From a virus, in IMG/VR virus record IMGVR_UViG_3300045988_163332, positions 1 to 37,329 of that record: DNA of 37,329 nucleotides, one strand, 5' to 3'. The notes below the pieces were generated by a model. That model saw only the letters and a list, made by a program, of their open reading frames with translations. It was not told the origin of the DNA and did no database searches. The translations under genes and the position numbers were made by a program. This document shows positions 526-36,312 of the stretch, one piece after another (the stretch's first letter is position 1; the number at the start of each line of letters is the position of its first letter).

Positions 526-981
526 TTATTTTTTCTTGTATTCTTGATATTGAACTAATACTTTTTTTATTTTCTCTGGAATAGGTACTCCACAGATACT
601 TGCATTTTCTAATATAGAAAGTCCCTCATTTGAAATAAAAACTCCTATTGTTAATGTCTTTATTCCTAATTTACTACCAAGTAGTATGTCTAAGTGGTAT
701 GCTAATACTATAACTAGAATTATCATAACCTTTTTTAGCATTCCTATTATACCTAGTTTACTATTAGCAGTACAAGTAATGTAAGCTTTGATAACTCCAG
801 ATATATAATCAACTGCCATAAGTATAAGTAATATTCTTAAAGCTTCATCTTGCCCACCTGTAATCATAAAGATAAAGGCTACTAAACTTCCTATTCCTAT
901 TGCTACACAATTACTTAAAATTTTTATTACATCAACCAACAACCAAAAGAAATCTGTTGCTATTCTAGTAAAATCTCCCAT
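526..981 (-). CDS. Holin of the TcdE / phage_holin_4_1 family.
   Basis: 151 aa with several hydrophobic segments and a charged C-terminus. The C-terminal block SILENASICGVPIPEKIKK matches the TcdE-family motif SILKNMCLCGLPVPKRLKEK. Last gene of the lysis cassette. Confidence 0.75.
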   Translation of the reverse strand: MGDFTRIATDFFWLLVDVIKILSNCVAIGIGSLVAFIFMITGGQDEALRILLILMAVDYISGVIKAYITCTANSKLGIIGMLKKVMIILVIVLAYHLDILLGSKLGIKTLTIGVFISNEGLSILENASICGVPIPEKIKKVLVQYQEYKKK

Positions 982-3035: not shown

Positions 3036-3914
3036 CTAATCTGTTATTATTAAAGTCCAACCATTAATTATTAAACTTCCACAAGTTAAACCAGAGTTAG
3101 TAACTATTGCTCCTAATACTGTTAGATTTTGTGTAATAGTTCCACCAGATGTTGGAAGTTTTGTATTATCAGCTATTGTAATATTGGCACTACCATTAAA
3201 ACTAACTCCGTTGATAGTTCTAGCAGTTTGCAATTTTGTAGCAGTAGCAGAGTTTCCTATACAAACATCAGCACTATCAGCAGTTGTAGCACTCTTTGCT
3301 TTATCTTCTTTACCTAATTTATTATCTAATAAATTATTAGTTTCAGTTTTAGTATATATATCTGGTTTATTTATTAGTTTTTCATAATCAGTAGTTCCAG
3401 GTTGACCGCTTTGTCCTGGTATCCCTTGTTGACCTCTAGGGGCAGTAAAATCATATGTGCTACCATTAGTTAAAGTCACAGTATAAACATTTCCACCATC
3501 TTCATTAGTATTCTTAAATGTTATACTTTTTACTCCTACTCCATCAGCTCCTTTAGGACCTTGAATACCTTGCTCTCCAGTATCTCCCTTAGGTCCTTGA
3601 GGACCAGTATTTCCAGTTATACCTTGTTCCCCTTTATCTCCCTTAGGTCCTTGAATACCTTGAGGACCTTGGGGACCTTGTGGTCCAGTATCTCCCTTAT
3701 CTCCTTTAGGACCTTGAATACCTTGCTCTCCAGTATCTCCTTTAGGACCTTGAGGACCTTGTATTCCTTGCTCTCCTTTTGCACCAGGTAAACCTTGAAT
3801 ACCTTGTTCCCCTTGTATTCCTTGTTCTCCTTTAGGACCTTGAGGTCCGATATCTCCTTGTTCTCCTTTAGGACCTTGAGGACCTACAACATTACCTATA
3901 ATTAATTTTGGCAT
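3036..3914 (-). CDS. Collagen-like repeat protein, a second tail fibre or fibre subunit.
   Basis: Residues 11..125 are continuous Gly-X-Y triplets (nt about 3540..3884), mostly GPQ, GPK, GEQ and GIQ. The C-terminal part is globular and rich in Thr, Asn and Gly. Confidence 0.6.
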
Positions 3915-3927
3915 AATTAAAACCTCC

Positions 3928-5307
3928 TTATTCTAAAATTTCTAATACCAAATTCCCATCTTCATCTATTGAAAAATTTGGTTGAGTATCATTCTCGTTA
4001 TAATATACAACTAAGTTTCCATCTTCTATTTGGAATATGTACTGACTATTTATAGGAGTGATTACAGCAGTTCCATTATCTCCTTTATCTCCCTTATCTC
4101 CTTTAGGACCTTGTATTCCTTGAGGACCTTGGGGTCCGATATCTCCCTGCTCTCCCTTAGGTCCTTGTTCTCCTTGTATTCCTTGAATGCCTTGTTCGCC
4201 TTTTAGTCCTTGAAGTCCTCTTTCTCCTTGAATACCTTGTTCCCCTTGTATTCCTTGAATACCTTGAGGACCTGTTATTCCTTGAGGACCTTGAGGTCCA
4301 ACTTCTCCTTGTATTCCTTGCTCTCCTTGAATACCTTGAGGTCCATTTTCCCCTCTTTCTCCTTGGTCTCCTTTATCTCCTTTGAATCCTCTTTCTCCTC
4401 TTTCCCCTTTCGGTCCTTCTGGTCCATCATTGCCTTGAATACCTTGAGGACCTCTTCGTGCTAATAATTCTCCTATAATTTCTCCGTCTTCACGGTAGAC
4501 TGTATAGACGTTTCCTTCTGGTAATTCTTTATTAAAACCAACACTTGCTATTGAGTACCCTCTTTCTCCTTTTAAATCTTGCATATGATAGTCTATATAA
4601 TCTTGGATTTCTTTTTCTGCTTCTTCTATTTTTTCTTGTGTATATTTATCTAATTTTAAATAACTATCTGTTTTAAGATAATTATCAATAATTTCTTTTA
4701 AATCTTTTTCTAATTGAATAACTAGCTCTTTTACTCTATTATCCAAATCTTCAAGTAATATTTTTTTTGTATCTTCATAAATCTTATTGAGCAACTCTTG
4801 ATATTTCTCAAATAGTGTAGTTACAGGATAAGTAGCTATCCCATCATCTGACATATACCAGATAGAACCTTTTGGTAAATCTGGTAAACCTAATTGTTTG
4901 GGTATTCCACTATCTACAAATAATTGAGATTTTATAATTTCTTTTTCTGTTCCAAGTATTGCAGCTTTTATTTTAGTAAACATATTATTTAGATTTTCTG
5001 GTGTAATATCTCCTGTACTACTAAAAGTAAAATCTAAATCAAAATAAGGTTCAGACTTAACTATCTTAATATCTGTGTAATCATTCCATATGTCATCTGG
5101 GTAGTTAGTAAAATCAATGTTTCCAGCATTGTATGTGTAATAATCTTTAGGTATAAGGAATATAAAAGCTGTGCTAGTTATAGGATTTTGTTTTTTCCCA
5201 TAGACTTCACAACTTGTCATTAAGTCTGAAAAGCTAGTAGCATACTGTTGTCTATTCTCTTCTAACTTAAAATACTCTTTTTTAAAATTTAACATTTGCT
5301 TAAACAC
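3928..5307 (-). CDS. Tail fibre protein with an internal collagen-like triple-helix region.
   Basis: 459 aa. The N-terminal part is globular. Residues 286..412 are Gly-X-Y repeats (nt about 4072..4452), followed by a short C-terminal beta-rich tail. Confidence 0.6.
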
Positions 5308-5315
5308 CTCTTTTC

Positions 5316-6827
5316 TTAATAATAAGTTGTTAGTGGTCCATCAAAACTATCTTTTAGATATATGCTAGCAAATATCATAGCAGTTCTAAATGAATCTGCG
5401 TCATCAGAAGCTTTATCATTTGCGTCGTGGTCTGGTATATCTAAGTAACAGTTCATGGACTTGTTATATTTTTTGACATAGCCTCCTAATTGTATAACTC
5501 CTATGTTACACTCGTTATTATCTATCTCTACATTTTCAAACTCCTTTCTTATATAGTTGATTTGATTTATTAATGTAGTCATATCATTTTTAGCTAGCTC
5601 TGTCTTAGATAGAGTTCTTACATCACTAAAATAATTTAATCTTATGTAGTCACTTCTTTTTGAAGTTGCACTCCATTCCTCGACATCTCCATCATGTGGT
5701 AGTACCATAGTAGGCTGCATATAGTACCCATTATCTTTGCACCATTTTTTTATATATTGGCAGCAGTGGTCTGGTCCTTGTCCAGTAACTCTATAATGTT
5801 TTATGAATCTAATTCTATTATTGTGAGGGTTCTTTTGAAAAAACCATAATACTGTATGGTCCCTTTTTCCTATATCCCAAGCAACATATAAAGGTTGTTG
5901 TGTCCAGAAATGCCCTGTGTATATTTGAGTATATCTTCTACTTACACTATCCAATAACTCTTCATACCTACCATAAAACTTTATCCTTTCATCTTCATAA
6001 GCTTTTTTTAGTTGTTCTCCATACCAAGCACCAACTAGATGAGTATTGATTTTACATTCCCACTCTTGAGCGTATGAATCGGGGTCCATAGTAAGAGCTT
6101 GTTTTCTAAGTTCTTTATCATTTATTACCCTCTCCCCTTTATAGTTCAAGGAATCTTTTCCAGATTGAATATCTACATACCACATATCTTTAATTTCTTT
6201 ATTTTCTGGTTTACTTAGGATAGTGAAGTAATCTATAAAAAGTTTAGTAAACCAATTATATTTACCCCTTGGTGTAGAGATAAATATTACAAAACCAAAG
6301 TCTGTGTTATTGATAACCATATCAACTGCAGGTTTCATATATTGATAGAACTTTTCTTTTATAAGTGCTGCCTCTGTATAAATAACTCCTCTAGCTCCTA
6401 CCCCTACACTTGCGTCTGGGTTATCTCCTCCACGAAAGAAGATTTTTGCTCCGTTAAATAAAGTTACACTCCAATCTGATTTATTAACTTTAGGTCCTCT
6501 TGGATTTGCTAGTATTTCATCTGGTATAAGATTTTCAAGTAAAGGTAACCCGTTTAATGTCTTCCCATCTACAACTATCTCCTTTACCTGTCTAAAATAT
6601 GGTGCATAGATATAGTAGTTTCCTGGGTGTTGAATAGCTGCTAGTATCATAATGAGTAGTGAAATAAAGTCCTTTCCATATCTTCTATGAGCCATTAGTG
6701 CAAAATACTTTTTCTTATTTTCCAAGACATTGTCCAGAAGTTCTTTCTGTCCTTTGTGTAGATATTTAATAACTTTTTTATAACTGATGGTTACTCTTCT
6801 TTTTGCTGCTCTTCCTAAAAAATTCAA
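5316..6827 (-). CDS. terL: Terminase large subunit (ATPase plus RNaseH-like nuclease).
   Basis: N-terminal deviant Walker A (AHRRYGKDF, nt about 6669..6680). A Walker B-like block follows ([12 protein letters not shown]). Nuclease motifs in the C-terminal half include [21 protein letters not shown] and [13 protein letters not shown]. Its location, separated from the small subunit gene, is unusual. Confidence 0.6.
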
Positions 6828-6852
6828 AACTCCACCTCCTTACCTGTTTGAT

Positions 6853-6889
6853 AAAATAAAAAAAGGACAACCCTTTTAGGTTGTCCTTT
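6853..6889 (-). terminator. Rho-independent terminator (minus orientation) between the giant virion gene and terL.
   Basis: Stem aaaggacaacc / ggttgtccttt with loop ctttta. On the minus-strand RNA it is followed by a U-run (plus-strand A-run 6855..6864). Confidence 0.55.
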
Positions 6890-6905
6890 GATTTTTCTGT
6901 AAATG

Positions 6906-6932
6906 GAAAAAGGCAACTCTAAAAGGTTGCCT
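6906..6932 (-). terminator. Second hairpin with a U-rich tail, in tandem with 6853..6889.
   Basis: Stem aggcaac / gttgcct with loop tctaaaag. A short A-run sits upstream on the plus strand, which is a U-run for minus-strand RNA. Confidence 0.4.
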
Positions 6933-7217
6933 GATTTTCTTAAAATTATTATATCATTAAATACTAAAAAAGTCTATAAAAAGAAAATGGCTGGTATAGT
7001 TGCAGCTATACCAGCGATGAACATACTAAGTCTTTCGTTCTTCTTAGTAATTAAATTATAACAAAAATAACTAGAAAGTTCAAGATATTTTTGTTATAAT
7101 AAGTCTAGCCCACCAAGAAAGGGGGTGAACATCATTAAGTCTTTCGTTCTAAGACTAATAATACTGGTTATTCTGTTTTTCTTAGTAAACAGAGTTGCAT
7201 TATAATTAGTCAAAAAA

Positions 7218-7246
7218 GGGGAGTGTTGCAGCACTCCTCCTTTTTT
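7218..7246. terminator. Bidirectional hairpin terminator just downstream of the stop of the 1633-aa gene.
   Basis: Stem ggagtg / cactcc with loop ttgcag. T6 on the plus strand (7241..7246) and T5 on the minus strand. Confidence 0.55.
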
Positions 7247-10200
7247 ATTCTCCTACTATTTTTTCTGCTAAATCATATCCTGTTTTAGCCATATTAACAT
7301 TTGATGTACCTAGTCCTAGTTTTAAAATATTTGCTCCAGCTTTTTCAAAATCTCCTTTAGATAAATTTTGAGCTATCTGTATAGGTCTTCTTGCTACTGC
7401 TGAACCATTAACTAAAGCCCAAGAGTTTATTTGAGAATCTAGTACTTCCCAAAATGCACTACCTGGACTATCTATTAAATCATCTATTTTTTCATTGATA
7501 GTTGCTATTGGGTCAGTGTAAAAATCTAAGTCGGTTACAAGTGCTAGTCCTCCATATAGTCCTGTTACTCCTAAGATATGTTTGAATAATCTTTTTTGCC
7601 ATATCTTATTGCCCCAATCAAAATGCCCATCTACTATATTAGAGGCGTATAAATCTCTTCCCAATCTTCTCCATTGTTCTTGTATAGAAGTTTTGAAGTT
7701 TCCCATCAACCTCATAAAATTTCTGTGGATAGGATTTTCAATATTTTCAATGACAGCTCTCATAGAAGCATTAGTTTCAGTAGGGGAAATATCAGTAACT
7801 ATTTTGTCATGTAACTTAGTTATTTTTTCAGTAATATTTTTTCTTATTAAGTCAAATTCTTCATTGTATAGAACTCTTCCTAATTGTTTTTCTACTTCTG
7901 ATTTATTTATAAAATCAAATAAGTCAACTTCATTAAATACACCTAACTCATTAAATTCTGGAATATCTTTTAATTTTTTTATGAAATAAAAGTCTAAATC
8001 ATCTATACCTACATTTTTAAATAAATTTTTCATATAGGCAGTATTATTTTTAAATAAATCATCTAAGTCTTGAAATTTACTCATATTTCTTAAAATCTCT
8101 GCACCCTCAAAAAAAGCTGCAAGTTTCATAACCTTTTGGCTCTCTCCATAAAAATTTAATTTATTAAGTCCTGTGTCTATTCCACTAATTATCTTTTCCC
8201 ATTTGCTACCATACTTATTTATCCTTTCTGCTATCTCTCCTGTTACATCATCTGCCTTATCCATAATAGAATTGAAAAATTTTAAAGGTACTGAATATTC
8301 AAATCTACTTCCTAAAGCTTTATCATATTTATCAAACATTTCTTTACTTAGATATAGCACTTGTGCAGCCTTTAAAAAATTTTTATAAGTTTCAGTAATA
8401 CCTGCTGAATTATATAACATAGTGCTAGCCCTTGCCATTGTTGGTGCTTCAAATATAAAGTCCTTTGTAAATTTAAGCCCTGTTAAACTAACTTTATTAC
8501 TATAACTTAAAAAATTAGTAATAGCTTTGTCTGCTATTGTTTTTGGTGGTTTTGTAATTCTTCCTAAATCCATTCCTATTCTATCATCTATTTTTTTCTC
8601 AATGGCTCTAACTAAAGTTTTATAAGTATCATTTGCAGTTTTTCTTTGAGTTTCATTCAAGATTCTTTCTATACCATTCATTCCATGTCCTGGTAAATTA
8701 TCTTTAATGGCTTTAGCTACTGAAATTTCTCTTATAAATCTTCTAATAGCTGTTCTATCAGAAGTCTTATTTTTATTTACAAGTCTTGTTAGATTTTTTC
8801 TTTTTATAATTTTTTCTCCATTAATAAAGTCATCAAATCTACCAAATCTATGAAGATGTCCTCCGAGAAATTTATTTTTGTAACTTCCTTTCTTACTCAT
8901 CATATCCATAGTATAAAAATATTTTGCATTATTTTTTCTACTTTCTAATATATTTTGAGCTATAAGGTTAGTATCCACCTCTTTGTAAAAGTCTGATTTT
9001 TCAATAAATTCTTTTATTTGTGGTATTCCCTCAAGTTTATATTTTTTAACAAGTGCTTTCTTATCTGATGAACTCATACACTCATTAGCTTTAGCCATTA
9101 ATTTTATAATTTTTTCTTTAGGAGCTTTATTCTTTCCTTTAAGATTATTAATTAAAGTTTCTGGTGTTGATTCAAAGAACTCTAAATTATCTTCTGCAAA
9201 AGCATTTCTTATAGTAAGCAATCTTTCTGGGATATTAAGTTCTACTAAATCATCATAACTCAAATCTCCTCTTATAAATTTATCTAAATCAACCTTTTTA
9301 TCATCTCCTAGATACTTCAATATATCTTCTTGTCTTATATATTTTTCTGCACTTAGGTTGTGGTCAAACATAAAATTATTGACAATGTCATCTACTGTTA
9401 TCTCATAACCATTTGTCAATTCTTTCATAGTGCTATAAAACTCTTCTCTTAATCTTAGTATCTCTGGTTCAAGCTCTTTTAAGCTATCTGGTAAACTTTT
9501 ATAATTCCATCTAAATAGATAATGAGTTAGATTTTCTCCATTCTCTTCAAATAAACTTATTAATTTATCTGGATTTAATTTCTCGCCTTTATAAGTTATA
9601 TTGAAAGCATTAGTTAGCATACCTTCCATTTGTTGCTTAGTTTTCTCGTATGGAATAAATAAATTTGTTTCAAGATATTCGCTCATAAGTGATGAAGCTT
9701 GTCCAACGTCTTTAGCTTTCCAAAATATTTCTGGTATATCATTTTTCCACTTAGCATACTTACTAAAACTTTTTCTAAGTTCTGCTATTTTTTTACCTGG
9801 GTCTTTTATTCCTTTTACAGAATCAATCATATTTGAAAATGCTACTATGTCTTCAGTTCCTGTATTTTTAGGTAATTGTAAATCAAGTAATTCTACAGTT
9901 TCAGAATTTATTTTACCATTTTTTAACATGTTATTTATTTTGTCATTTATTATATAACTAATCTCAAAATTTACATCTGGATATTTAGAAAAATGTCCTT
10001 TTGTCATATCTTCTATAGCTTCTCCAAATGTCATATCTGCTATATCTTTTTTTTGAAATTTTATACTCTTAAATCCTGGAGCTTGGTATTTGTCTATTGC
10101 GTGTTCTATTTCATGCCTTAAAGTACCTAGTTTTAAATCTAAATCATCTTTCATCATTAATGGATTTAAACTTATTTTTATTTCTCTTTGGTTACTTGAA

Positions 10201-17091: not shown

Positions 17092-17266
17092 TTATCCTGT
17101 TACCTCCTTCTATAAATTTTTTCATTACTTTTAGTTGCTCTGGAGTATTTGCTAATTCAACTCCAATTTTTCCTACAACTAAAAAGAAAGTTCTTGCTTT
17201 GATATATTTGTTTTTTAATAAAAATCTCATAAATTTAAAAAATATTATAAATAATTTACCTTTCAT
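17069..17266 (-). CDS. Small hypothetical protein (65 aa) that overlaps the recombinase stop.
   Basis: Good RBS: ggagg, 8-nt spacer, then ATG. Its start overlaps the recombinase stop codon. Confidence 0.35.
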   Translation of the reverse strand: MKGKLFIIFFKFMRFLLKNKYIKARTFFLVVGKIGVELANTPEQLKVMKKFIEGGNRIIGKTQSN

Positions 17267-17954
17267 TTTCCTGTGCCTCCTCTAGTATAATATTTTTCTT
17301 ATACTTGTAATATGTATTCTTAGTTATCCCTAGCAGTGTAAAGACTTCTATATCTTTAAGATTTCCTCCAAAATCTTTAGCTAGTTTTTTAATTTTCTCT
17401 CTCATCTCCTTTTCTTTCTTGGTAGTATAAGTATCTCCTTGTTTTCTACCTAATATAGTTCCTTTAGCTTTAGTAACTCTTAGTCCCTCTTTTGTCCTTT
17501 CTCTAAGGTCTAATACTTCCTTTTCAGCTTGGTCAAATGCTATTTTAATTTGTTCTTGAGCTAATATCTTCAATACTTCATTGGTTGCGTCTATGTATAT
17601 ATCAGCTATTTTATTTCCTGTTGAATCTATTTTATTCTCTAAAGCTTTTTTATAAAGGGCTGTATTGATATATCCCTCTTTTAAAAATATAAGTTCAATA
17701 CCTCTTTCTACAAAATTAAAATATTCTTTTATTCCCTCTTCTGCATTTCTACTCATTCTACTAACAGAATCAAATATAATTGTATCTCCAGGTTTAACTA
17801 TTTTTTTTAGCTTACTCCATTCTTTTCTATCTGTTGTAGTTCCTGTATATGCTTCTTGAAATACTTTAGCAGTTGGATATATCTTTATGATATTTTCCAC
17901 CTGTCTTAAAATATTTTGTTTTTTTGTAGATACTCTGCAATAACCGTATATCAT
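17256..17954 (-). CDS. Small serine recombinase (resolvase or invertase family) with a C-terminal HTH.
   Basis: The N-terminal block YGYCRVSTKKQ contains the catalytic Ser motif of serine recombinases. 232 aa, with a C-terminal helix-turn-helix (LLGITKNTYYKY). Confidence 0.8.
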   Translation of the reverse strand: MIYGYCRVSTKKQNILRQVENIIKIYPTAKVFQEAYTGTTTDRKEWSKLKKIVKPGDTIIFDSVSRMSRNAEEGIKEYFNFVERGIELIFLKEGYINTALYKKALENKIDSTGNKIADIYIDATNEVLKILAQEQIKIAFDQAEKEVLDLRERTKEGLRVTKAKGTILGRKQGDTYTTKKEKEMREKIKKLAKDFGGNLKDIEVFTLLGITKNTYYKYKKNIILEEAQENER

Positions 17955-27230: not shown

Positions 27231-27719
27231 TTACACAACCCCCTCAACTTGTAAGAATTTCTTAGTCTTGTCATCTCTTTGCTCTTGCTTGTCCTCTGTC
27301 TTTTCTCCTAGCTCTAATGAAACCTCAATGTTATTAGTTCCACCTTGCTTGTCCCAGCCTGCCAGAGTTTCTATTCTTTGCGACAGTTGAACTGCTGCTT
27401 TAAAATCTACAAATTTACCTGTTTTTTCTAGTAGTCCTTTGTCTGTAAGTCTTATAATCTTTGTATCTTCCAGTCCTGCTGCCTGTTCAAATAGTCCTTG
27501 CATTATTGCTAAGTGTCCCATTTTATCTCTTCCAAGCATAAAGTCCACCATTTCCAAGTGTTCCTCTATTTGCTTGTTGATTTTCTTGCTACTCATTAGC
27601 TTGTGCATTAGCTTTAGGTCGAATGGGATTCCAGCAGCTTGCATGGCTTTAAGTCCATTTTTGCAAACTAGAAATGATGATATGAACTTCTCTTCTTGCT
27701 CTTTGGTTATTCCTGCCAT
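27231..27719 (-). CDS. terS: Terminase small subunit.
   Basis: 162 aa. N-terminal block NGLKAMQAAGIP resembles the terminase small subunit HTH signature ...A.kaAGys. It sits upstream of the head genes. Confidence 0.5.
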   Translation of the reverse strand: MAGITKEQEEKFISSFLVCKNGLKAMQAAGIPFDLKLMHKLMSSKKINKQIEEHLEMVDFMLGRDKMGHLAIMQGLFEQAAGLEDTKIIRLTDKGLLEKTGKFVDFKAAVQLSQRIETLAGWDKQGGTNNIEVSLELGEKTEDKQEQRDDKTKKFLQVEGVV

Positions 27720-28795
27720 TCTAACTCTGCCCCCTCTTCTCCTAGTCTTATTTTTATACTAACTTTAGCTATTTTTTTGAGTAGTTTTTCCAATCTTTCA
27801 AAGTTCTTGGAATAAGACTTTTTAATCTCTCCAAGTTTTTCTAACTCTTCCAGCTTTTCAATAACTTTCTTTTTCTGGTATTGAATAGCTCTTTTTTTAA
27901 TACTCATATTATTTTCAGTCATTACAACATCAAGTAATCTAATATCAAATATTAAATACTCTTTCATCATTAGTCTTTCTGCTAGCCCCTTAGTTCCTGG
28001 AACAACTATCTTTTTCAATTCTTTGATATCATAGTTTAACTCTTTGACTATCTGCTCTGTAAGTATTGCTCCTATTGTTTTTCTAAGTGCTGCAGCTAGA
28101 TTATCTTTAGTTATTCCACCTAGATGATTTAAATTATAGGTCTTGAGGTGTGGAGGTCTTAGCGTCAACTCTCCTCTTAATGCTTGTCTTTTCTTTGCTA
28201 CCTCTTTTCCTGTATCTTCCATCTCTTTTCTTTTGGAATAGATTTTAAAATAGCTAGTTGTTTCTCTGGACTTTTTCCCTCTCTCTTTGAAGTCTACTCC
28301 ATCAAGTTCCAATCTTTTTTTATTGTCTGTATCAAAATACATTCTTGAAGTTGGAAAGATATTTTTATATGCTCTATATATCAAATTTAAAACTTGATAA
28401 TAATTTCTGATGTTCTCAACTTCTAATTGGTTTGATAAGTCCAGACTAACTACTCTAATATCTTCTCCTTTTACAAGTTCTCCTGTTATGCTTCTAAGTA
28501 TTAAGATTAATTCTTGATGTACTTGAGCAATAACTTTTTGATTTGTTACTAGCTTGTAATTGTCATTGTTATCATATCTGGAATAACTGAAAGAGATTAA
28601 TATATTTTTTTTCTCATCAATGCTGATGTAGTTTAACCAGTTATATTTTTTTAATCTGGTATTTTTAAATATTATTTTTTTATTTTCATTTCGTGCCTCT
28701 TCTTCCAGTAGTATGCTAGTTGATTGAATTATGAAGTCTAGTTCATTCAACTTGGCTGGATAACTTATACTTGCAGTATCTACAATCCAACCCAC
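27707..28795 (-). CDS. Hypothetical protein (362 aa), first gene of the late block.
   Basis: ORF with a GTG start after a G-rich SD. C-terminal coiled-coil. Confidence 0.5.
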   Translation of the reverse strand: MGWIVDTASISYPAKLNELDFIIQSTSILLEEEARNENKKIIFKNTRLKKYNWLNYISIDEKKNILISFSYSRYDNNDNYKLVTNQKVIAQVHQELILILRSITGELVKGEDIRVVSLDLSNQLEVENIRNYYQVLNLIYRAYKNIFPTSRMYFDTDNKKRLELDGVDFKERGKKSRETTSYFKIYSKRKEMEDTGKEVAKKRQALRGELTLRPPHLKTYNLNHLGGITKDNLAAALRKTIGAILTEQIVKELNYDIKELKKIVVPGTKGLAERLMMKEYLIFDIRLLDVVMTENNMSIKKRAIQYQKKKVIEKLEELEKLGEIKKSYSKNFERLEKLLKKIAKVSIKIRLGEEGAELEWQE

Positions 28796-28993
28796 CCCCC
28801 TTTTAATTTTCTAAAAGATAGCTTTAATAATTTAAAACTATCTCTAAGAAAATCAGGTATATTTTATTTTTTTATAGTTAAACCCTTGCAGGATATACAA
28901 GGGAGCTTTATTATATATTTAGCTGAGTTTCAATTTTCTAAAACATAGAATTTATGCTAGTTTCAGAAGATTTTTTCTTACTTTTATACCCTC

Positions 28994-29020
28994 AAAAACG
29001 CAATTTTTTTTGCGTTTTTT
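28994..29020. terminator. Bidirectional hairpin terminator.
   Basis: Stem aacgcaa / ttgcgtt with loop tttttt, flanked by an A-run and a T-run. Confidence 0.55.
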
Positions 29021-29046
29021 GGGTAAAAAAATATTTATTAGTATGT

Positions 29047-29184
29047 TTTAAAATTCTATATCTCTTATTTTTCTTTCATAGAACATCATTAACATATGTT
29101 CTTTGACTTCGTTTCTCAAGTCCATTTTGTCTAGCTCTTCTTTAAAATACTTCAATGTCTCAACGAGTTCTTTTGTTTCTTCCA
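29047..29184 (-). CDS. Candidate small protein (45 aa) just downstream of the Cro-like gene.
   Basis: Translation gives MEETKELVETLKYFKEELDKMDLRNEVKEHMLMMFYERKIRDIEF. RBS aggagg 7 nt upstream. Followed by the terminator at 28994..29020. Below the ORF-track cutoff. Confidence 0.35.
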
Positions 29185-29221
29185 TTCCTGCACCTCCTTT
29201 CGTTTTCTTGGTGTTAAAATG

Positions 29222-29422
29222 TTATTTGCTATTTAATACCTTTTCTATTTTCACTAAAATTTCATTGCTTGGGACTTGGTTATTTCTTAATCTCAACATA
29301 ATATTTGCAAATGAAGCTTTAGGAATCCCAGCAAGTTCTGCAAATTCTGCCTGTGTTATTTTTTTTCTTTTTTTAAATTTTTCAATTTCATTTATAATCA
29401 AATCAGTTATTTTTTTAATCAC
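29222..29422 (-). CDS. XRE-family helix-turn-helix regulator (Cro-like, 66 aa).
   Basis: HTH block ITQAEFAELAGIPKASFANI. GTG start. Confidence 0.6.
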   Translation of the reverse strand: MIKKITDLIINEIEKFKKRKKITQAEFAELAGIPKASFANIMLRLRNNQVPSNEILVKIEKVLNSK

Positions 29423-29446
29423 AATATAACCCCCTTTTAGTTATAT

Positions 29447-29475
29447 TATATATCCTTTTTAGTTATTTTTGTCAA
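29447..29475 (-). promoter_or_regulatory. Promoter for the Cro-like gene: TTGACA, 17-nt spacer, TATATA (minus strand).
   Basis: -35 is the reverse complement of tgtcaa at 29470..29475. -10 is the reverse complement of tatata at 29447..29452. Confidence 0.5.
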
Positions 29476-29621: not shown

Positions 29622-30173
29622 TTAATTATAAATTTTTTCTAAAATTTCCCCTATTCTTTGTTGATTATATCCAACTAATTCAGCTGTTTTTTTTCTAAAT
29701 AACATTATTCCAGAAATACTATTTTCCCCTAAAATTTCTTTTTCTTTTTCTAAACCAAATTTAATATAAATTATTTCTTGAAACATATTTTTACTTTGTA
29801 ATCCTCTTATATTTTCCAATGTTGAAAATATATATTTTCTTTGTTGTTGAACCTCTTTTATATTTTTAAATTTCTCATCTGTAACCTCTTTTAAAAGCAG
29901 CATTCCTAAAGAAGTTTGATATATATCATAGGCTGAGTTTTCAAGTTCTGTTAAATATTGCGTTTTATCTTCTTTGGGATTTTTAGTTAAAATTTCTACA
30001 ACCTCTTTATAATTATTCATTATTTGTTTAAAATCTTTTTCATAGTCATTAGTTTGATATGCAACAATAAACATTTCAAAAGTTTTATCAGTTATACTTT
30101 TTATAATTATATCGTTTTCAGCATAGATATTAAAATTAAAAATCAAAAATAACATTAAAAATACTTTTTTCAT
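29622..30173 (-). CDS. Secreted protein with a signal peptide, co-transcribed with the CI repressor. Candidate superinfection-exclusion or lysogenic-conversion protein.
   Basis: N-terminus MKKVFLMLFLIFNFNIYA followed by ENDII is a signal peptide without a lipobox Cys. The ATG is 8 nt after the CI stop. Confidence 0.55.
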   Translation of the reverse strand: MKKVFLMLFLIFNFNIYAENDIIIKSITDKTFEMFIVAYQTNDYEKDFKQIMNNYKEVVEILTKNPKEDKTQYLTELENSAYDIYQTSLGMLLLKEVTDEKFKNIKEVQQQRKYIFSTLENIRGLQSKNMFQEIIYIKFGLEKEKEILGENSISGIMLFRKKTAELVGYNQQRIGEILEKIYN

Positions 30174-30181
30174 AAATCCCC

Positions 30182-30832
30182 CTAATAATATCTCATAACA
30201 CTTCTTAATCTTCCAATGACTCTAAGCTCTGATTGGTCCATTATTTTAATTTTAGGGTAATATGGATTTATACTTTTTAAAAAAATATCTCCCTCATCTT
30301 GTACGAATTTTTTTAAATATACTGCTCCTTGATAATTGACAACTATAATTTTATTTAAAATACAGTCTATGTTTTTAGTGTCAACTATAACTATATCTCC
30401 ATCTTTTATCTCTGGTTCCATAGAATCTCCAGCAACTCTTATAGCTATATTTCCTGTTTTTGCTAAATCTTCTGGCACTTCTATATATTCCAGAGTTCCA
30501 TAATCATTAAAACAACCATATCCAGCTGAAGCTTGAATATCTGGATAAAATGGGATCTTTTTTTGATTAACATTTTTTATTTGCTTTAATTGTAAAAACT
30601 CTTCTTTTAAACTCTCTGGTGCCTTTTCTAAATCTACTAATTTTAATAACTGAGCATAACTTTCTTTATCCATTATTTGTCCTAATTGCTCAATCGTTGT
30701 TGCTGGAATCTTTCTTTTTCCATTTTCAATATTTGTAATAAAAACTTGACTACATAGCAATTTATCGGCTAAATCGACTGCTCTTAAATTATTTTTCTTT
30801 CTAAATTCCTTAATAAATTCTCCTGCTGTCAT
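30182..30832 (-). CDS. CI-type repressor: N-terminal XRE HTH fused to a LexA/S24 autopeptidase domain.
   Basis: HTH block LRAVDLADKLLCSQVFITNIENGKR. S24 motifs GDSMEP and a K further downstream (VAGDSMEPEIKDGDIVIVD). Confidence 0.8.
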   Translation of the reverse strand: MTAGEFIKEFRKKNNLRAVDLADKLLCSQVFITNIENGKRKIPATTIEQLGQIMDKESYAQLLKLVDLEKAPESLKEEFLQLKQIKNVNQKKIPFYPDIQASAGYGCFNDYGTLEYIEVPEDLAKTGNIAIRVAGDSMEPEIKDGDIVIVDTKNIDCILNKIIVVNYQGAVYLKKFVQDEGDIFLKSINPYYPKIKIMDQSELRVIGRLRSVMRYY

Positions 30833-30862
30833 ACTTTTTCAACTCCTTTTATAACTAATTTG

Positions 30863-30891
30863 ATTATACAATAAAAAAAATAACTTGACAA
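30863..30891 (-). promoter_or_regulatory. Repressor promoter (minus strand): TTGTCA, 17-nt spacer, TATAAT.
   Basis: -10 is the reverse complement of attata at 30863..30868. -35 is the reverse complement of tgacaa at 30886..30891. Confidence 0.5.
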
Positions 30892-30913
30892 ATAACTTTC
30901 TTGGTTATATAAT
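30885..30913 (+). promoter_or_regulatory. Early rightward promoter: TTGACA, 17-nt spacer, TATAAT (perfect consensus). Its -35 box overlaps the divergent repressor promoter face to face.
   Basis: -35 ttgaca at 30885..30890, -10 tataat at 30908..30913. Repeated AAATAACT and TTATAT(A/G)AT motifs flank it. Confidence 0.6.
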
Positions 30914-30996
30914 CATATCAAATAGATAACTTAGTTAGTTATATGATAATCCTAAAAAAACATAAAAGCAAGTAGAAAATATAAGGAGTTGGTAAT

Positions 30997-31443
30997 ATGT
31001 ATAAATACTTTAACAGTAACGAGGATTTAAAAAAACAATATAGAGAATTATGTAAGAGATTACACCCAGACCACGGCGGAAATGAAGAGGACTTCAAAGA
31101 GATGATGGCAGAGTATGAAAGAATACAACTTGAGGGATTTAAACAACAAGCAAGGGAAGCAGGGGAAGAGATAGCCCCAGAGGTTATGGAGATACTAAAG
31201 AAAATAATACATTTCCATGGTTTAGAGATTGATGTTGTAGGTTCTTGGATATGGGTATCTGGTAATACTTTCTTATACAAGGAACAGTTAAAAGAACTTG
31301 GTTTTAGATGGAGTGCTAAAAGAAAAAAATGGTACTTTGGAGAGAAAAAAGGAAAAGGAACATTCAAGGGAGATTATGAAGAGTTAAAACAAAAATATGG
31401 TTGGCAAAGAGTACAAGGAAGCAACCTACAAGCGATAGCATAG
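30997..31443 (+). CDS. J-domain (DnaJ-like) protein. First gene of the early operon.
   Basis: N-terminal J-domain with the HPD motif (KQYRELCKRLHPDHGGNEEDFKEMMAEYERI). The C-terminal 90 aa are unassigned and Trp rich. Confidence 0.7.
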   Translation: MYKYFNSNEDLKKQYRELCKRLHPDHGGNEEDFKEMMAEYERIQLEGFKQQAREAGEEIAPEVMEILKKIIHFHGLEIDVVGSWIWVSGNTFLYKEQLKELGFRWSAKRKKWYFGEKKGKGTFKGDYEELKQKYGWQRVQGSNLQAIA

Positions 31444-31513
31444 TTAAGTTTTTATAGGTTCCCTAAGAGCCTTGGGGAACTTGTTAAAAACTTAAAAGGG
31501 GGCGGTCAATATG
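31443..31513 (+). repeat. Copy 1 of a triplicated early intergenic unit of about 70 bp, with a 23-bp palindrome (31458..31480) followed by an RBS and atgact.
   Basis: Sequence agtttttataggttccctaagagccttggggaacttgttaaaaacttaaaagggggcggtcaatatgact. Very similar to the copies at 32474 and 33191. Confidence 0.7.
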
Positions 31514-31711
31514 ACTGATGAACAAATTAGATTTTTTATAAAAGATTATATTTTACCAGAGATTAGAAAATACAAATCTGAAAGTATAGAAGTATTTTAC
31601 AAAGAAAAAAATGGTGTCTATACAGTTAGTATAGATGGCAAAGAATTTAAAGATTCTGATATTAAATCTTGCCTAGAAGAAGCAAGAGGATATTTTAAGG
31701 GGTGGTTCTAA
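31511..31711 (+). CDS. Small hypothetical early protein (66 aa).
   Basis: ATG directly downstream of repeat copy 1. Confidence 0.5.
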   Translation: MTDEQIRFFIKDYILPEIRKYKSESIEVFYKEKNGVYTVSIDGKEFKDSDIKSCLEEARGYFKGWF

Positions 31712-31890
31712 TGTCACAAGATGTAATGTTCTTAAAATATATCAATGAGAAATGGGGAGTTCTTACAGTAAGAAGATTTAAAAAATTTTATATAGTAAAC
31801 GCTGGAGAGTTCCACGGATATGGTTTAACAGTATCTGAAGCGATAGCAAATTTAGCACTTAATAATCAAGAGGAGGGAAAACTATGTTAG
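31711..31890 (+). CDS. Small hypothetical early protein. The ATG at 31711 overlaps the upstream stop; the ORF-track GTG at 31702 is less likely.
   Basis: taATG overlap with the stop of the upstream gene. Confidence 0.45.
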   Translation: MSQDVMFLKYINEKWGVLTVRRFKKFYIVNAGEFHGYGLTVSEAIANLALNNQEEGKLC

Positions 31891-32159
31891 ATAAAGAATT
31901 ATTAGAAGGATTTGAAACAATGCAACAATTACAAGATGATGGACTAATTGATTCTTATAATTATAACTCGAAAACAGGAGATTTTATGGTATTTTCTGGA
32001 CTTGGTAAAAAAGAAGTTAAGTTCCAGGTAGATATGGATAGTATGATGGAGTTTTTAGAAGAATGGGAAAAAGAAGTTGAAGAAGCTTTCCAAGATAAAA
32101 AAAGAGAAGAACAAGACAGAGAAGCAGCTTACTGGGCAGTCCAAGGGGTTAGATATTAA
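31884..32159 (+). CDS. Acidic hypothetical early protein (91 aa).
   Basis: ORF with RBS gaggaggg. Confidence 0.5.
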   Translation: MLDKELLEGFETMQQLQDDGLIDSYNYNSKTGDFMVFSGLGKKEVKFQVDMDSMMEFLEEWEKEVEEAFQDKKREEQDREAAYWAVQGVRY

Positions 32160-32226
32160 TGATAGCTTGGATAAAACATATATTAAAATTCAAAATTAAA
32201 TATAGCAAAATGTAGGGGGAATAAAA

Positions 32227-32475
32227 ATGTTAGCAGTAATGATGGAGAATTTAAAAGAAAAATACAGTATTAAAAATTTAGTTTGGGAGATAAAAAACAA
32301 TATAGTTTTCTTTAGTGGAGAACTTAAAAAAAATATAGTTGCTGGATATGTAGGAGAAAAACCAGTAAGTTATGAGAAAAAATTAGATTTTAATAGCTTT
32401 AGGGTAGCAGATGAAAAAGTAGAAAAAGAAATTGATGACTTTTTCCAAATGCTTGAAAATGTTTTTAATAAATAA
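32227..32475 (+). CDS. Small hypothetical early protein (82 aa).
   Basis: ORF with RBS taggggga. Confidence 0.5.
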   Translation: MLAVMMENLKEKYSIKNLVWEIKNNIVFFSGELKKNIVAGYVGEKPVSYEKKLDFNSFRVADEKVEKEIDDFFQMLENVFNK

Positions 32476-32548
32476 TTTAGTTTTTATAGGTTCCCCAAGA
32501 GCCTTGGGGGACTTATTAAAAATTAAATTGGAGGTGGTCTTTATGACT
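32474..32548 (+). repeat. Copy 2 of the triplicated intergenic unit (palindrome 32490..32512).
   Basis: Sequence tttagtttttataggttccccaagagccttgggggacttattaaaaattaaattggaggtggtctttatgact. Confidence 0.7.
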
Positions 32549-32680
32549 GATGTTAGATTAGAAAGACTTGATAACTACTTTGATGAGGAGTTAGAAGAAG
32601 TTAGAGAAGCTGCAGCAGATATGACAGAAAAAGAGCTTAGAGAATTTTTAGAACTTTTAAATATTGAGGAGTGGTTTTAA
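32543..32680 (+). CDS. Small acidic protein (45 aa) starting MTDVRLERL. The ORF-track start at 32432 is a spurious upstream extension through the repeat.
   Basis: The ATG at 32543 is preceded by ggaggtgg inside the repeat unit. Confidence 0.45.
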   Translation: MTDVRLERLDNYFDEELEEVREAAADMTEKELREFLELLNIEEWF

Positions 32681-33192
32681 TGGCAAATATAATAAATTTA
32701 TTAGAGGACAAATTAGCATTAAATGAACTTTGGGAAAATTCCATTGATGAGAACACAGGAGAAATAAAAGAGTGTGAAGCTTTAGAGGCTTTAACAAAAG
32801 AAATAGAGCAAGATTTGAGCAGTAAAACAGGTAGAATTATACAGGTATTTCAAAATAATAAAGCACAAATAGAAGTGCTGGACAAGGAAATAAAAAGGCT
32901 TGAAGCTAGAAAAAAATCTTTAGAGAATAAAGATAAAAATTTTAAAAACTTTTTAAAATATACTCTTGAAAGAATAGGAGTAAAAAAAATAGATACTATC
33001 TTTGGAATAATAGGAATAAAAAATAATCCTGCAAGTGTAGAGCTTATAGACAAAGACAAAATACCTGCAGAATTTAAGACAATAAAATATGTTGAAGATA
33101 TTTCAAAAACTGAAATTTCAAAAGCTTTAAAGGCTGGGGTAGAAGTTCCAGGAGCAGAACTTAAACAAAGTACAAGTTTATATATTAAATGA
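32680..33192 (+). CDS. Gp157-like protein (Sipho_Gp157 family), of the kind commonly paired with phage annealing proteins.
   Basis: 170 aa and coiled-coil rich. The ATG at 32680 overlaps the upstream stop. It sits just upstream of the Rad52-like gene, as in other Firmicute phages. Family call from memory. Confidence 0.4.
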   Translation: MANIINLLEDKLALNELWENSIDENTGEIKECEALEALTKEIEQDLSSKTGRIIQVFQNNKAQIEVLDKEIKRLEARKKSLENKDKNFKNFLKYTLERIGVKKIDTIFGIIGIKNNPASVELIDKDKIPAEFKTIKYVEDISKTEISKALKAGVEVPGAELKQSTSLYIK

Positions 33193-33265
33193 TTTAGTTT
33201 TTATAGGTTCCCCAAGAGTCTTGGGGTACTTATTAAAAATTAAATTGGAGGTGGTCTTTATGACT
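33191..33265 (+). repeat. Copy 3 of the triplicated intergenic unit (palindrome 33208..33229).
   Basis: Sequence atttagtttttataggttccccaagagtcttggggtacttattaaaaattaaattggaggtggtctttatgact. Confidence 0.7.
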
Positions 33266-33883
33266 AAAGAAAAATTTCAAGAAATGTATTTAAAAGATTT
33301 AACAGGTATGATAGAAACAATAGACACAGGAAAAAGAAAGCTATCATATATTAGCTGGGCTAATGCTTACAAAATGGCTATGGAGCAAGACCTATCAATG
33401 AGTTATGAAATATTAGAAGATTTAGAGGGGTTTCCTTTATTCTCAAGAGGGGATTGCCACTTTGTAAAAACTACTGTTACTATGTTTGGAGTAACTAAAA
33501 AAATGATGTTACCTATTATGGACAATAGACATAATTCTATAAGCAAACCTAACAGTAGAGATATAAACGACAGTATAATGAGATGTCTTGTAAAAAATAT
33601 AGCAATGTTTGGTATAGGACTATCATTATACACTGGAGAGGATTTAGAAAAGTATAAGGAATCTAAAGAAGATAAAGAGGTTAAGGAAGTTGAAGAGCAA
33701 ATTACACCAGAAGAGAGGTCTAAATTTATAGAAGTTATAAACAAAAAATACTCTAAAGAGGATATAGACAAGGCTATATACTTAGTTAAGGAAAATGGTA
33801 GATTTGAATTTAATATCTACACAGCAAGTAAAAAAGAATTAAACTATTTAAAAGCAACTTTAAGAAGTTTAAAAACTGCATAA
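33260..33883 (+). CDS. Rad52-like single-strand annealing protein (Sak family).
   Basis: The ATG at 33260 follows the repeat RBS. YISWANAY and DSIMRCLVKNIAMFGIGLSLY resemble the Rad52 N-terminal-domain motifs YIS and D.lkRaL.sFGnaLG. Acidic C-terminal tail. Confidence 0.5.
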   Translation: MTKEKFQEMYLKDLTGMIETIDTGKRKLSYISWANAYKMAMEQDLSMSYEILEDLEGFPLFSRGDCHFVKTTVTMFGVTKKMMLPIMDNRHNSISKPNSRDINDSIMRCLVKNIAMFGIGLSLYTGEDLEKYKESKEDKEVKEVEEQITPEERSKFIEVINKKYSKEDIDKAIYLVKENGRFEFNIYTASKKELNYLKATLRSLKTA

Positions 33884-33889
33884 AATAAA

Positions 33890-33919
33890 AATGGCAGGTT
33901 TATTCCTGCCACTTTTATT
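33890..33919 (+). terminator. Rho-independent terminator ending the early operon.
   Basis: Stem ggcagg / cctgcc with loop tttatt, followed by acttttatt. Confidence 0.6.
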
Positions 33920-34035
33920 AAAGAATCTCGAATAACATATGACGATTAAAAAAAGCATCTTATATGGGGTTAAAAATTTGGATACAGTAGTATAATATAC
34001 TTTTAGGTATAAGTCAATATCTTTTTAAACAAAAA

Positions 34036-34375
34036 GTATAGAGGTACAAAATCCAATTTTTATAGGTACAACATCAAAATTAATGTACCTTTAAAAACTA
34101 CAAAATCCAAATTATAACTACATGTCCTTTTATTATTGTAGTTAATTTATTTCCTATTTAGAAGAATATCTTTATATTCTTGTTTCTTTTAATATATTTC
34201 GACACCTCTCAAACCTTTAATTTTAGAGGGCTAGAGAAGACAAAAAACGACAAAATCCAGAGTATTTAACTACAAAATCCAAAGCAAAAAACGACAAAAT
34301 CCAGAGTATTTAACTACAAAATCCAAAATATAGAACTACAAAATCCAAAATTTAACGACATTATTTATTGACTAT
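34036..34375. repeat. Iteron-type replication origin. About 8 copies of ACAAAATCCA(A/G), including a 45-bp unit repeated twice in tandem. Inverted repeats and an AT-rich unwinding stretch lie alongside.
   Basis: Copies at about 34044, 34094, 34250, 34272, 34295, 34317, 34339 and 34352. The sequence caaaaaacgacaaaatccagagtatttaactacaaaatccaaag occurs twice in tandem. Inverted repeats aggtaca..tgtacct and actaca..tgtagt. AT-rich stretch at 34140..34200. Confidence 0.65.
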
Positions 34376-34386
34376 GTAGTTTTAAT

Positions 34387-35544: not shown

Positions 35545-35553
35545 GGGGGTAAA

Positions 35554-36312
35554 ATGAAAATAATATCATTTATAACAGAAAAAGGTGGCACTGGTAAGAC
35601 TACTGGTGCCAGAGAAGTTGCTGGGGTACTATCTCTAGTTCATAATAAAAAAGTTTTGCTTATTGATTGTGACTTTCAACAAAATCTAACTGAGAGTTTA
35701 ATAGAAGCAGACCAAGAAAAAAATATATTTAGAGCCATAAAAGAGAAAGATTTAAAAGGAAATATAATTCCTATTGAAAGAGATGGAAAACATATATTAG
35801 ATTTAATACCTGCAAGTCTTAATTTAAAGGACTTGGAATATAAAAAAGACAGTGTTGATATGGAAATGATTTACCTAGATTTAAAAAAAGGACTAGAGCA
35901 ACTCCAAGAATATGACTATATAATTATAGATTGTAGACCAGATATGAGAGCAATAGAAAGGGCTGTGTTAAAGTGCAGTAATTATGTTATCACTCCTGTT
36001 GAAGCTCATCTATTTAGTTTTAGAGGGTTTGAATTATTAGAGAACTTTATACAAGCTCTTAAAAAGGATTTAAACACTCCATTCATTCATTTTGGATATA
36101 TAAACAGGCTACAAAATGACAAAGAGATATTAGAAGCCACTGAAGATGTCAGAAGTTCTTTTGATAACATATTAGATACTCCTATAAGAGATAACCTTAA
36201 AATATTTAAAGCCTCACAGACAGGACATTTTATAATAGAATATAGTTCTACATCAAATGGGGCTAAGGATTTTAAAGCTCTTACAAAGGAGTTGTTGAAT
36301 AAATGGCAATAA
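35554..36312 (+). CDS. parA: ParA/Soj-type partition ATPase.
   Basis: Deviant Walker A KGGTGKTT near the N-terminus (MKIISFITEKGGTGKTTGA). 252 aa. Confidence 0.85.
   Translation: MKIISFITEKGGTGKTTGAREVAGVLSLVHNKKVLLIDCDFQQNLTESLIEADQEKNIFRAIKEKDLKGNIIPIERDGKHILDLIPASLNLKDLEYKKDSVDMEMIYLDLKKGLEQLQEYDYIIIDCRPDMRAIERAVLKCSNYVITPVEAHLFSFRGFELLENFIQALKKDLNTPFIHFGYINRLQNDKEILEATEDVRSSFDNILDTPIRDNLKIFKASQTGHFIIEYSSTSNGAKDFKALTKELLNKWQ

Follow-up and report, generated by a model that had tools for sequence, protein, structure and literature searches.

Among described type I toxin-antitoxin systems, the par locus of the Enterococcus faecalis plasmid pAD1 (Fst mRNA, RNA I; antitoxin, RNA II) is marked by kissing of the terminator loops, direct repeats over the GUG start and the ribosome-binding site (RBS), a 5′ stem-loop and an RNA II of ~40 nt (PMC7472228). 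Fst/Ldr toxins share a PXXXG(C) motif in the hydrophobic domain, a conserved Trp and a charged C-terminal tail (PMC7472228). Loci of the tisB/istR-1 type have a divergent layout, and their small RNAs (sRNAs) pair in long 5′ untranslated regions (5′UTRs) at standby sites, off the initiation site (PMC4147584). Here we analyse a 417-bp gap, part of which resembles these loci, between the gene of a 1633-aa protein and terL, the gene of the terminase large subunit, in a virus genome from IMG/VR (record IMGVR_UViG_3300045988_163332, positions 1 to 37,329; this whole stretch of 37,329 nt is called the window).

The part of the gap next to terL invites comparison with short terminated RNAs of phages and plasmids. 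The late genes under lambda PR′ include the terminase genes, and the countertranscript RNAs of the pT181 repC leader are cis-encoded and fully complementary and act by attenuation. StxS, a short transcript of the lambda-type PR′-tR′ unit, works as a regulatory sRNA (PMC7547250). In the Gifsy-1 prophage, the short isoform of IsrK acts in trans by pairing with an mRNA leader that is structured and closed to translation (PMC4825925).

A first-pass annotation of the window had described the gap as the structured leader of an orphan terL gene behind two tandem terminators. We consider it probable that the gap holds three small transcription units and not one leader: a promoter with twin terminators next to terL (proximal part, 6828..6976), and a peptide mRNA and an antisense sRNA from divergent promoters farther away (distal part, 6980..7245; Table 1). 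All transcripts of the gap were deduced from promoters and terminators. The two minus-orientation terminator hairpins, the diverged direct repeats and the two hairpins with the loop TTGCAG that had been noticed earlier are all present, and these features exceed chance. Terminator-like sites in 5000..8000 number 7, as against 1.2 ± 1.2 in shuffled sequences, and all seven lie inside the gap, which is the only strong terminator cluster within the 28-kb minus-strand late block. Likewise, all three predicted RNAs out-fold 200 shuffles (z = −3.7 for the antisense sRNA, −4.5 for the peptide mRNA and −5.8 for the leader RNA). Annotators should not label this gap a ‘noncoding leader’.

Table 1 Positions of the gap features and of linked features elsewhere in the window. 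ORF, open reading frame
Feature	Position	Strand	Details
terL (terminase large subunit)	5316..6827	−	TTG start; PHROG phrog_2, E 1.6e-27; RBS AAGGAGGTG at 6833..6841
h2, strong intrinsic terminator	6862..6889	−	11–12 bp stem, loop UAAAAG, U7 tail at 6852..6861
h1, first terminator-like hairpin	6911..6932	−	7–8 bp stem, loop CUUUUAGA, U-rich tail UUUUUCCAUUU at 6900..6910
Predicted leader RNA/sRNA (~90 nt)	6852..6941	−	5′ tail AAGAAAAUC (8–9 nt), h1, spacer, h2
Leader 5′ seed TAAGAAAATCAGG	6930..6942	−	Exactly complementary to 28845..28857
Leader/terL promoter	6948..6976	−	TAGACT–17 nt–TGnTATAAT; sigma-70-type
Predicted antisense (antitoxin-like) sRNA (~67 nt)	6980..7048	−	Start ~7048
Predicted 5′ stem-loop of the sRNA	within 6980..7048	−	ACUAAG[AAGAACGAAAGA]CUUAGU
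sRNA terminator	6990..7015	−	Loop CUGCAA, U-tail 6979..6989; one-directional (U-tail on minus strand only)
Repeat copy 1	7016..7064 (repeat ~7016..7048)	+	Truncated peptide-gene paralogue; template of the antisense sRNA
46-bp palindrome with two back-to-back promoters	7055..7100	both	Both promoters with TGTTATAAT; inverted repeat I1, 22-nt arms, 91% complementary
P(−)	7083..7055	−	TTGAAC-17-TATAAT
P(+)	7072..7100	+	TAGAAA-17-TATAAT
Predicted peptide (toxin-like) mRNA (~140 nt)	7107..7245	+	From promoter and terminator
Repeat copy 2	7124..7156	+	Initiation region and first ~10 codons of the peptide mRNA; main sRNA target
Small hydrophobic ORF MNIIKSFVLRLIILVILFFLVNRVAL	7125..7205	+	26 aa from GTG; strong RBS, preceded by AAAGGGGG
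Bidirectional terminator	7218..7239	both	Ends the 1633-aa gene (−) and the peptide mRNA (+); + loop UUGCAG
First late gene (362 aa)	27707..28795	−	No Pfam family; function-unknown phrog_36664, E 3.9e-09
Motif CCUGAUUUUCUUA in the 5′UTR of the first late gene	28845..28857	−	5′ side of the outer stem of a long hairpin abutting the RBS
Phage-plasmid signature genes	29622..37225		30182..30832 (−), 34387..35544 (+), 35554..36312 (+)
Divergent promoters between repressor and early genes	30863..30913	both	+: a perfect TTGACA-17-TATAAT; −: 11/12 matches

The distal module and type I toxin-antitoxin systems

As in type I systems, the distal part contains a small (<60 aa) hydrophobic ORF with its own promoter, RBS and terminator, and next to it an sRNA gene complementary to the toxin-like mRNA. 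The 5′UTR of this mRNA is only ~18 nt long. The predicted fold includes a 5′ hairpin (GCCCACC/GGGGGUG) that closes the RBS and a long hairpin within the ORF. The ORF is kept in all three haplotypes of the module, with the C-terminal 16 aa invariant, and the peptide lacks Pro, Gly, Trp and an acidic tail. Since the RBS of this phage family resembles AAAGGRGGUG, some called GUG starts, namely those of the peptide gene and of the gene at 27707..28795, may be part of the RBS. If the GUG belongs to the RBS AAAGGGGGUG, the peptide would start at AUC or AUU and have 23–24 aa.

Copy 1 of the direct repeats can be aligned over the full length of the peptide gene; it lacks 30 nt internally but retains start and stop. 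The sRNA is therefore the antisense of a truncated toxin paralogue. An ATG-initiated 24-aa ORF in copy 1 occurs only in the window haplotype. Because the two copies are direct repeats on the DNA while the promoters diverge, the sRNA is complementary to the mRNA. The exact core shared by the copies comprises 15 nt (TAAGTCTTTCGTTCT, at 7027..7041 and 7136..7150), and the complementarity runs from the 3′ end of the RBS, across the start, to about codon 10. Reading the sequence manually, base by base, we found that the 5′ end of the sRNA also pairs with codons 17–21. A third contact is offered by the terminators, where the sRNA loop CUGCAA is complementary to the mRNA loop UUGCAG; this mutual complementarity explains why the two hairpins had appeared to share the loop TTGCAG. 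The small RNA suggested earlier as a possible content of the region probably has two counterparts, this antisense sRNA and the leader RNA described below.

A large share of the differences that close relatives show in the gap lies in the two repeats, with others in the promoter palindrome, and the changes in the repeats are correlated. Across the three haplotypes, both copies are changed at 5 positions, and two of the three one-sided changes are G-U compatible. For every mRNA, the duplex with its cognate sRNA is the most stable (−40.0, −36.8 and −33.1 kcal/mol), compared with −22 to −34 kcal/mol for non-cognate combinations. The sRNA:mRNA pairing is preserved in all three haplotypes by correlated changes. 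Such co-variation suggests that the pairing specificity is diversifying, which matters for incompatibility and competition between related phage-plasmids. A DNA pattern scan, a metagenome scan and look-ups of identical TerL proteins returned the same three haplotypes only, and the module is confined to the clade of the window.

On this architecture, the distal part is likely to be a type I toxin-antitoxin-like module. P(+) would drive the mRNA for a hydrophobic peptide of 23–26 aa whose RBS is closed by the 5′ hairpin, and P(−), in the same palindrome, would drive the sRNA antisense across the truncated copy of the peptide gene. The sRNA would contact the mRNA at three sites, that is, over the initiation region and the first ~10 codons, at codons 17–21, and from terminator loop to terminator loop. 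By doing so it would block translation of the putatively membrane-toxic peptide, trigger decay of its mRNA, or both. The module would most likely be an acquired addiction or stability module of a plasmid-like prophage, a role in keeping with the Rep3 initiator, the ParA protein and the S24-type repressor that the phage encodes and with the failure to find an integrase in the window.

The similarities to par of pAD1 comprise a short hydrophobic peptide, a GUG-type initiation region, repeat-based complementarity over start and RBS, complementary terminator loops, a 5′ stem-loop on the RBS, a small sRNA (~40 nt for RNA II; ~67 nt predicted here) and a plasmid-like replicon. In contrast, the promoters of par are convergent and its two RNAs share one bidirectional terminator, whereas the module of the window has divergent promoters, back to back within one palindrome, and two separate terminators with identical loops. 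Moreover, the peptide lacks the PXXXG motif, conserved Trp and charged tail of Fst and does not match Fst models, and the sRNA gene, unlike that of par, is a truncated toxin paralogue. With the E. coli loci tisB/istR-1, shoB/ohsC, zorO/orzO and dinQ/agrB, the module shares adjacent divergent promoters, limited complementarity in trans and short hydrophobic peptides; ShoB, for instance, has 26 aa. These systems pair at standby sites, whereas the pairing in the window covers the RBS, the start and codons 1–10 under a much shorter 5′UTR, and the peptide has no sequence similarity to theirs. The module could represent a new type I toxin-antitoxin family with an antitoxin derived from the antisense of a truncated toxin; together with the trans-acting role of the leader RNA proposed below, we offer this only tentatively. 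It may also be the first type I system noted in a Fusobacterium-type mobile element, as our literature search found none. If it is a true type I system, the class reaches into a Fusobacterium-type phage-plasmid, where the layout is new and the toxin unrelated, and the module illustrates one way for an antitoxin sRNA to originate, from a truncated toxin duplicate read backwards.

A different role for the peptide and its antisense sRNA is conceivable. The pair could be an antisense-regulated small membrane protein acting in superinfection exclusion, lysis timing or host modulation, since small phage membrane proteins with non-toxin roles are common and the peptide has no homology to any toxin family. 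We regard this as rather unlikely: the architecture fits type I systems feature by feature, and in this plasmid-like prophage the module is flanked by insulating terminators and runs antisense to the late genes. Several points nevertheless speak against the three-unit reading of the gap and its toxin-antitoxin-like module. Every promoter, start and end is a consensus prediction. The module is known from only three closely related haplotypes, and gene conversion between their repeats may account for part of the correlated changes. DNA and peptide searches covering GenBank phages and PLSDB plasmids returned no further copy of the module. The peptide has no match among the toxin families of Pfam, NCBIfam and PADLOC (with nothing at E ≤ 10 in Pfam and NCBIfam); its start codon is ambiguous, and its toxicity is putative.

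Promoter and twin terminators upstream of terL

The proximal part is far more widespread than the distal module. The order of promoter, tail, h1, spacer, h2 and terL RBS is found in eight clades, among relatives at 54–67% TerL identity. A promoter-like −10 element stands at the same place in all relatives (mostly TATAAT or TATACT, several with an extended TGn), its distance to h1 is fixed at 15–16 nt across clades, and roughly half of the clades also have a recognisable −35 hexamer at a suitable spacing. In an alignment of 10 sequences from the 8 clades, the two-hairpin structure is 94.7% paired with 12 pairs changed on both sides; none of 500 shuffles equals this result, and slid controls reach 43–61%. 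Taken singly, helix 2 (h1) is 96.3% paired with 4 of its 8 pairs changed on both sides, and helix 3 (h2) is 97.2% paired with 6 of 11. Searched with a covariance model of the leader, the window yields a single copy (100.9 bits; the second-best match scores 26.7), and each relative that has the element yields one upstream of terL; the L014/15 clade yields none. Classical four-segment attenuators (trp type) combine mutually exclusive 1:2, 2:3 and 3:4 pairings with a leader peptide or another sensor over segment 1; in this leader the 2:3 pairing can form (see below), and the 9-nt tail contains no leader ORF.

The promoter would start an RNA at ~6941 with a single-stranded tail of 9 nt, and most transcripts would end at h1 or h2 as RNAs of ~40 and ~90 nt. 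Only read-through or antitermination would then carry transcription on into terL and the fibre and lysis genes. Separate control of terL, which the first-pass annotation had proposed, is plausible on this evidence, as a dedicated promoter followed by two tandem terminators has been kept at this distance with compensatory changes in the stems. The conserved promoter with twin terminators would mean that an uncultured family of gut phages gates its terL, fibre and lysis genes separately from its head and tail genes.

Hairpins h1 and h2 have mutually complementary loops: their summed run of 36 exceeds the 26.3 ± 2.3 obtained after shuffling the loops and the 28.9 of non-cognate combinations. The leader could also fold, at nearly the same energy as the two hairpins, into one long hairpin, which is the fold of lowest energy in L011 and L016. 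As one element of the tentative proposal made in this work, the leader RNA might be bistable, forming either two hairpins or one duplex of ~25 bp, and could be processed or multimerise. A role like that of phi29 pRNA, considered on account of the complementary loops, is unlikely, given a full two-domain terminase and hairpins with terminator U-runs. Nothing points to a packaging-related site in the gap, a further possibility raised earlier; contig ends fall in a collagen-like fibre gene instead.

In the lambdoid PR′-tR′ unit (6S RNA) and in StxS, a late-gene promoter is likewise terminated at once, lysis genes lie behind it, and a by-product RNA carries a trans-acting seed; in the window, too, the promoter is closely trailed by intrinsic terminators upstream of late genes. 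Lambdoid late promoters of this kind work with a Q-family antiterminator and its DNA binding/pause element at the promoter. In the window, ~40 ORFs compared with PHROGs and Pfam, many of them matching no family, gave no Q-like antiterminator, and no binding element was found. The unit described here also has two tandem terminators with complementary loops and is located amid structural genes. IsrK offers another parallel, with one promoter giving a terminated short RNA and a read-through long form.

It is unlikely, in our estimate, that h1 and h2 act simply as terminators or insulators, with the promoter and the complementarity of the tail incidental and terL served by leaky, low-dose read-through. 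Such a role would suit hairpins that are terminator-like on both strands, the giant gene of L011, which runs directly into them without a terminator of its own, and the weak terL starts (UUG, AUA, AUC) of many clades, which fit low expression. It does not sit well with a −10-like element fixed 15–16 nt from h1 in all clades, with a 5′ tail that covaries with the late 5′UTR (see below), or with the separate terminator that precedes the promoter in L023, L034 and L036.

Most clades appear to have a non-AUG terL start (UUG, AUA or AUC), and L013 and L033 have no canonical start at all; the start sites lie at 6827 in the window, ~3865 in L011, ~2490 in L034 and L036, and ~3950 in L013. The N-terminal reading frame of terL is conserved among relatives, and 44 N-terminal TerL residues are kept as protein despite the non-AUG starts. 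The weak start codons in relatives agree with selection for a low dose of TerL. The near-identical relatives L001–L004 and L026–L028 carry, between h2 and the RBS of terL, a 29-bp insertion (TCCAACTTTTAAAAGATGGAATTTCAAAC; window equivalent ~6851/6852) that is missing from the window and L005.

Complementarity of the predicted leader RNA to the late-operon 5′UTR

The 13-nt seed at the 5′ end of the leader RNA recurs exactly once more in the window, inverted and 22 kb away, in the 5′UTR of the first late gene. In the window, the seed AAGAAAAUCAGG and the late-UTR motif CCUGAUUUUCUU, which lie on the same sequence, form a duplex of −16.3 kcal/mol (P < 0.001 compared with shuffled seeds). Both sides differ in L011/L023 (seed AAGAAAUACAG, motif CUGUAUUUCUU, −13.7 kcal/mol; same-contig check: L024+L060) and in L017 (seed AAGGAAUACA, motif UGUAUUCCUU, −12.7 kcal/mol; same-contig check: L017+L049). 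Each of the three duplexes reaches P ≤ 0.004 against shuffled seeds, with 3 compensatory double changes in all. In the L014/15 clade, which has no terminators, the complementarity to the late 5′UTR is lost too (−3.2 kcal/mol, P 0.72). The same late-UTR architecture of motif, variable hairpin, anti-motif and RBS is present in L049, L050, L060, L062 and L064. Of these, L062 and L064 (both at ~560..700) have new motif variants, UGUAAUCCUUG and UGUAAUUCUUA, which predict matching seeds in the corresponding terL leaders. Crossover by an invertase at the inverted 13-mers was considered and rejected, because the inversion would flip 22 kb and cut the late genes from their promoters.

These observations suggest a possible, if still doubtful, role for the leader RNA as a trans-acting phage sRNA whose seed opens the closed 5′UTR hairpin of the first late gene. 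The terminated leader RNA would act in trans, its 5′ tail pairing with the late-UTR motif in competition with the 3′ side of the hairpin. As a further element of the tentative proposal, this RNA-RNA contact would couple late replication with the unit of packaging, fibre and lysis genes. The covarying complementarity makes the pair a testable case of a phage sRNA that regulates the late programme of the phage itself. By comparison, StxS targets host rpoS and stx, whereas the predicted target here is the 5′UTR of the late operon of the phage itself; IsrK targets its own read-through isoform, whereas the candidate target here belongs to a different operon 22 kb away. As in pT181 control, the leader to which the RNA is complementary would belong to a RepD-type initiator gene (here by a low-TM fold match only), but the pT181 RNAs are cis-encoded, whereas this one would be trans-encoded with a seed of 10–13 nt.

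The 362-aa product of the first late gene has a confident AlphaFold model, with a predicted local distance difference test score (pLDDT) of 88.6. Its best PDB folds are RepD/RepDE rolling-circle initiators and the TBP fold (E 2.5e-7), with low template modelling (TM) scores of 0.29–0.38. The product may be a lytic-phase rolling-circle initiator, for which the evidence is this low-TM fold match only.

Several findings count against the proposed roles of the leader RNA. The seed of L011 was paired with the late 5′UTR of another contig (L050). The seed invades h1 by only 1–3 nt and so cannot alone explain read-through. The UTR motif lies 1–3 nt after a −10-like hexamer, and the shared 10–13-mer could be a DNA operator. 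The hairpins are palindromes, and the structure statistics are blind to RNA versus DNA and to strand. Finally, no antiterminator protein was identified when ~40 ORFs were compared with PHROGs and Pfam, where many ORFs match no family at all.

In an explanation at the DNA level, the shared 10–13-mer would be an operator at two promoter starts, for instance of a phage-specific late regulator, or a binding or nick site of the RepD-like protein whose gene directly follows the late 5′UTR, and the nested palindromes would act as DNA. The motif stands at about +1 of the leader promoter and, in three clades, 1–3 nt after the −10-like hexamer of the late region; the product of the first late gene has the RepD/RepDE-like fold just described; and all hairpins are also DNA palindromes. 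Rolling-circle origins of the pT181 family carry nested inverted repeats next to rep. We judge this explanation improbable, since the two motif copies face opposite ways with respect to transcription, h1 and h2 are flanked by U-runs and A-runs typical of terminators, and the complementarity is lost along with the terminators in L014/15. Nor is a candidate binding protein known.

The leader RNA could also be the target and not the regulator, with the late 5′UTR pairing to the nascent leader and freeing a 2:3 antiterminator (the 3′ arm of h1 with the 5′ arm of h2), so that terL, fibre and lysis genes are switched on after late mRNA builds up. The 2:3 pairing can form in 90% of cells, compared with 39–61% in slid controls, the leader of L014/15 consists of regions 2 and 3 alone as one hairpin without a terminator, the seed complementarity covaries, and the long hairpin is nearly isoenergetic with the two-hairpin fold. 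The 2:3 pairing, however, has no cognate covariation, with zero compensatory changes and shuffles doing as well; the seed reaches just 1–3 nt of the h1 stem; h2 is independently a strong terminator; and the long alternative hairpin still ends at a U-run. Antitermination mediated by RNA in this way is very unlikely. Of the earlier proposal of attenuation or antitermination, control by read-through or antitermination as such stays plausible, and what failed was the search for a conserved alternative pairing, which can fold without covarying.

The notion that the whole 417 bp is one cis-acting terL leader, with its repeats and hairpins as alternative attenuator and antiterminator structures, matches the position of these elements between the upstream gene and terL and the high degree of structure, but is extremely unlikely: the distal 260 bp have divergent promoters, a one-directional terminator and an opposite-strand ORF of their own, a strong terminator (6990..7015) and a promoter separate them from the proximal part, and all relatives outside the clade of the window lack them yet keep the proximal leader. 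The 250-bp structured leader (6960..7215) of the first-pass annotation accordingly gives way to small units with promoters, terminators and an ORF, and the layout comparison with relatives, set beforehand as a refutation test, went against it.

Gene order, putative replicon type and relatives of the phage

The window represents an AT-rich, podovirus-like phage. Its 28-kb minus-strand gene block encodes the portal (phrog_332), a tail protein (phrog_376), proteins of 694 and 1633 aa, TerL, a holin and two collagen-like fibre proteins. No PHROG family matched the 1633-aa protein, and the label ‘ejection protein’ rests on synteny only. Relatives at 54–67% identity have the same order of giant gene, terL and fibre genes, which makes it the norm of the family and terL no orphan. 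A terS gene 20 kb away, as annotated before, was not confirmed, as no ORF near 27 kb matches any terS family in PHROGs, Pfam or PDB sequences. Downstream of terL lie the holin (PF05105, E 9.6e-33) and an M15 peptidase-like match that is weak and falls below the threshold.

The window also codes for an S24/helix-turn-helix (HTH) CI-like repressor, a Rep3 initiator, a ParA partition ATPase, Gam and Sak. With Rep3, ParA and the repressor present and no integrase found, the phage looks like a phage-plasmid. GenBank phages yielded no TerL above 27% identity and PLSDB plasmids no terL match. The TerL homologues number 45, two of them source-labelled as Fusobacterium varium and Fusobacteriaceae metagenome-assembled genomes, and the contigs stem from human-gut metagenomes. 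No tRNA or tmRNA genes were found in the window, and Rfam 15 gave no match at gathering thresholds across it; the best sub-threshold matches in 6700..7400 score 20–30 bits against thresholds of 50–115.

The head of the late arm (28860..29470, minus strand) contains a consensus promoter, a 66-aa HTH regulator (29222..29422), a small ORF and a terminator-like hairpin (~28990..29025). Before the late 5′UTR stands a TATAAT with a mis-spaced −35-like hexamer (10–12 nt); an activator may be required at the late promoter. The two genes after terL (3036..5307, minus strand) encode the collagen-repeat tail-fibre proteins; several assemblies end within such genes, ~1.6 kb past terL, with the repeats as the probable cause. 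A serine recombinase (Resolvase N-terminal domain; PHROG ‘DNA invertase’) is encoded at 17256..17954 on the minus strand, in the middle of the structural block, and could resolve plasmid multimers or switch fibre genes.

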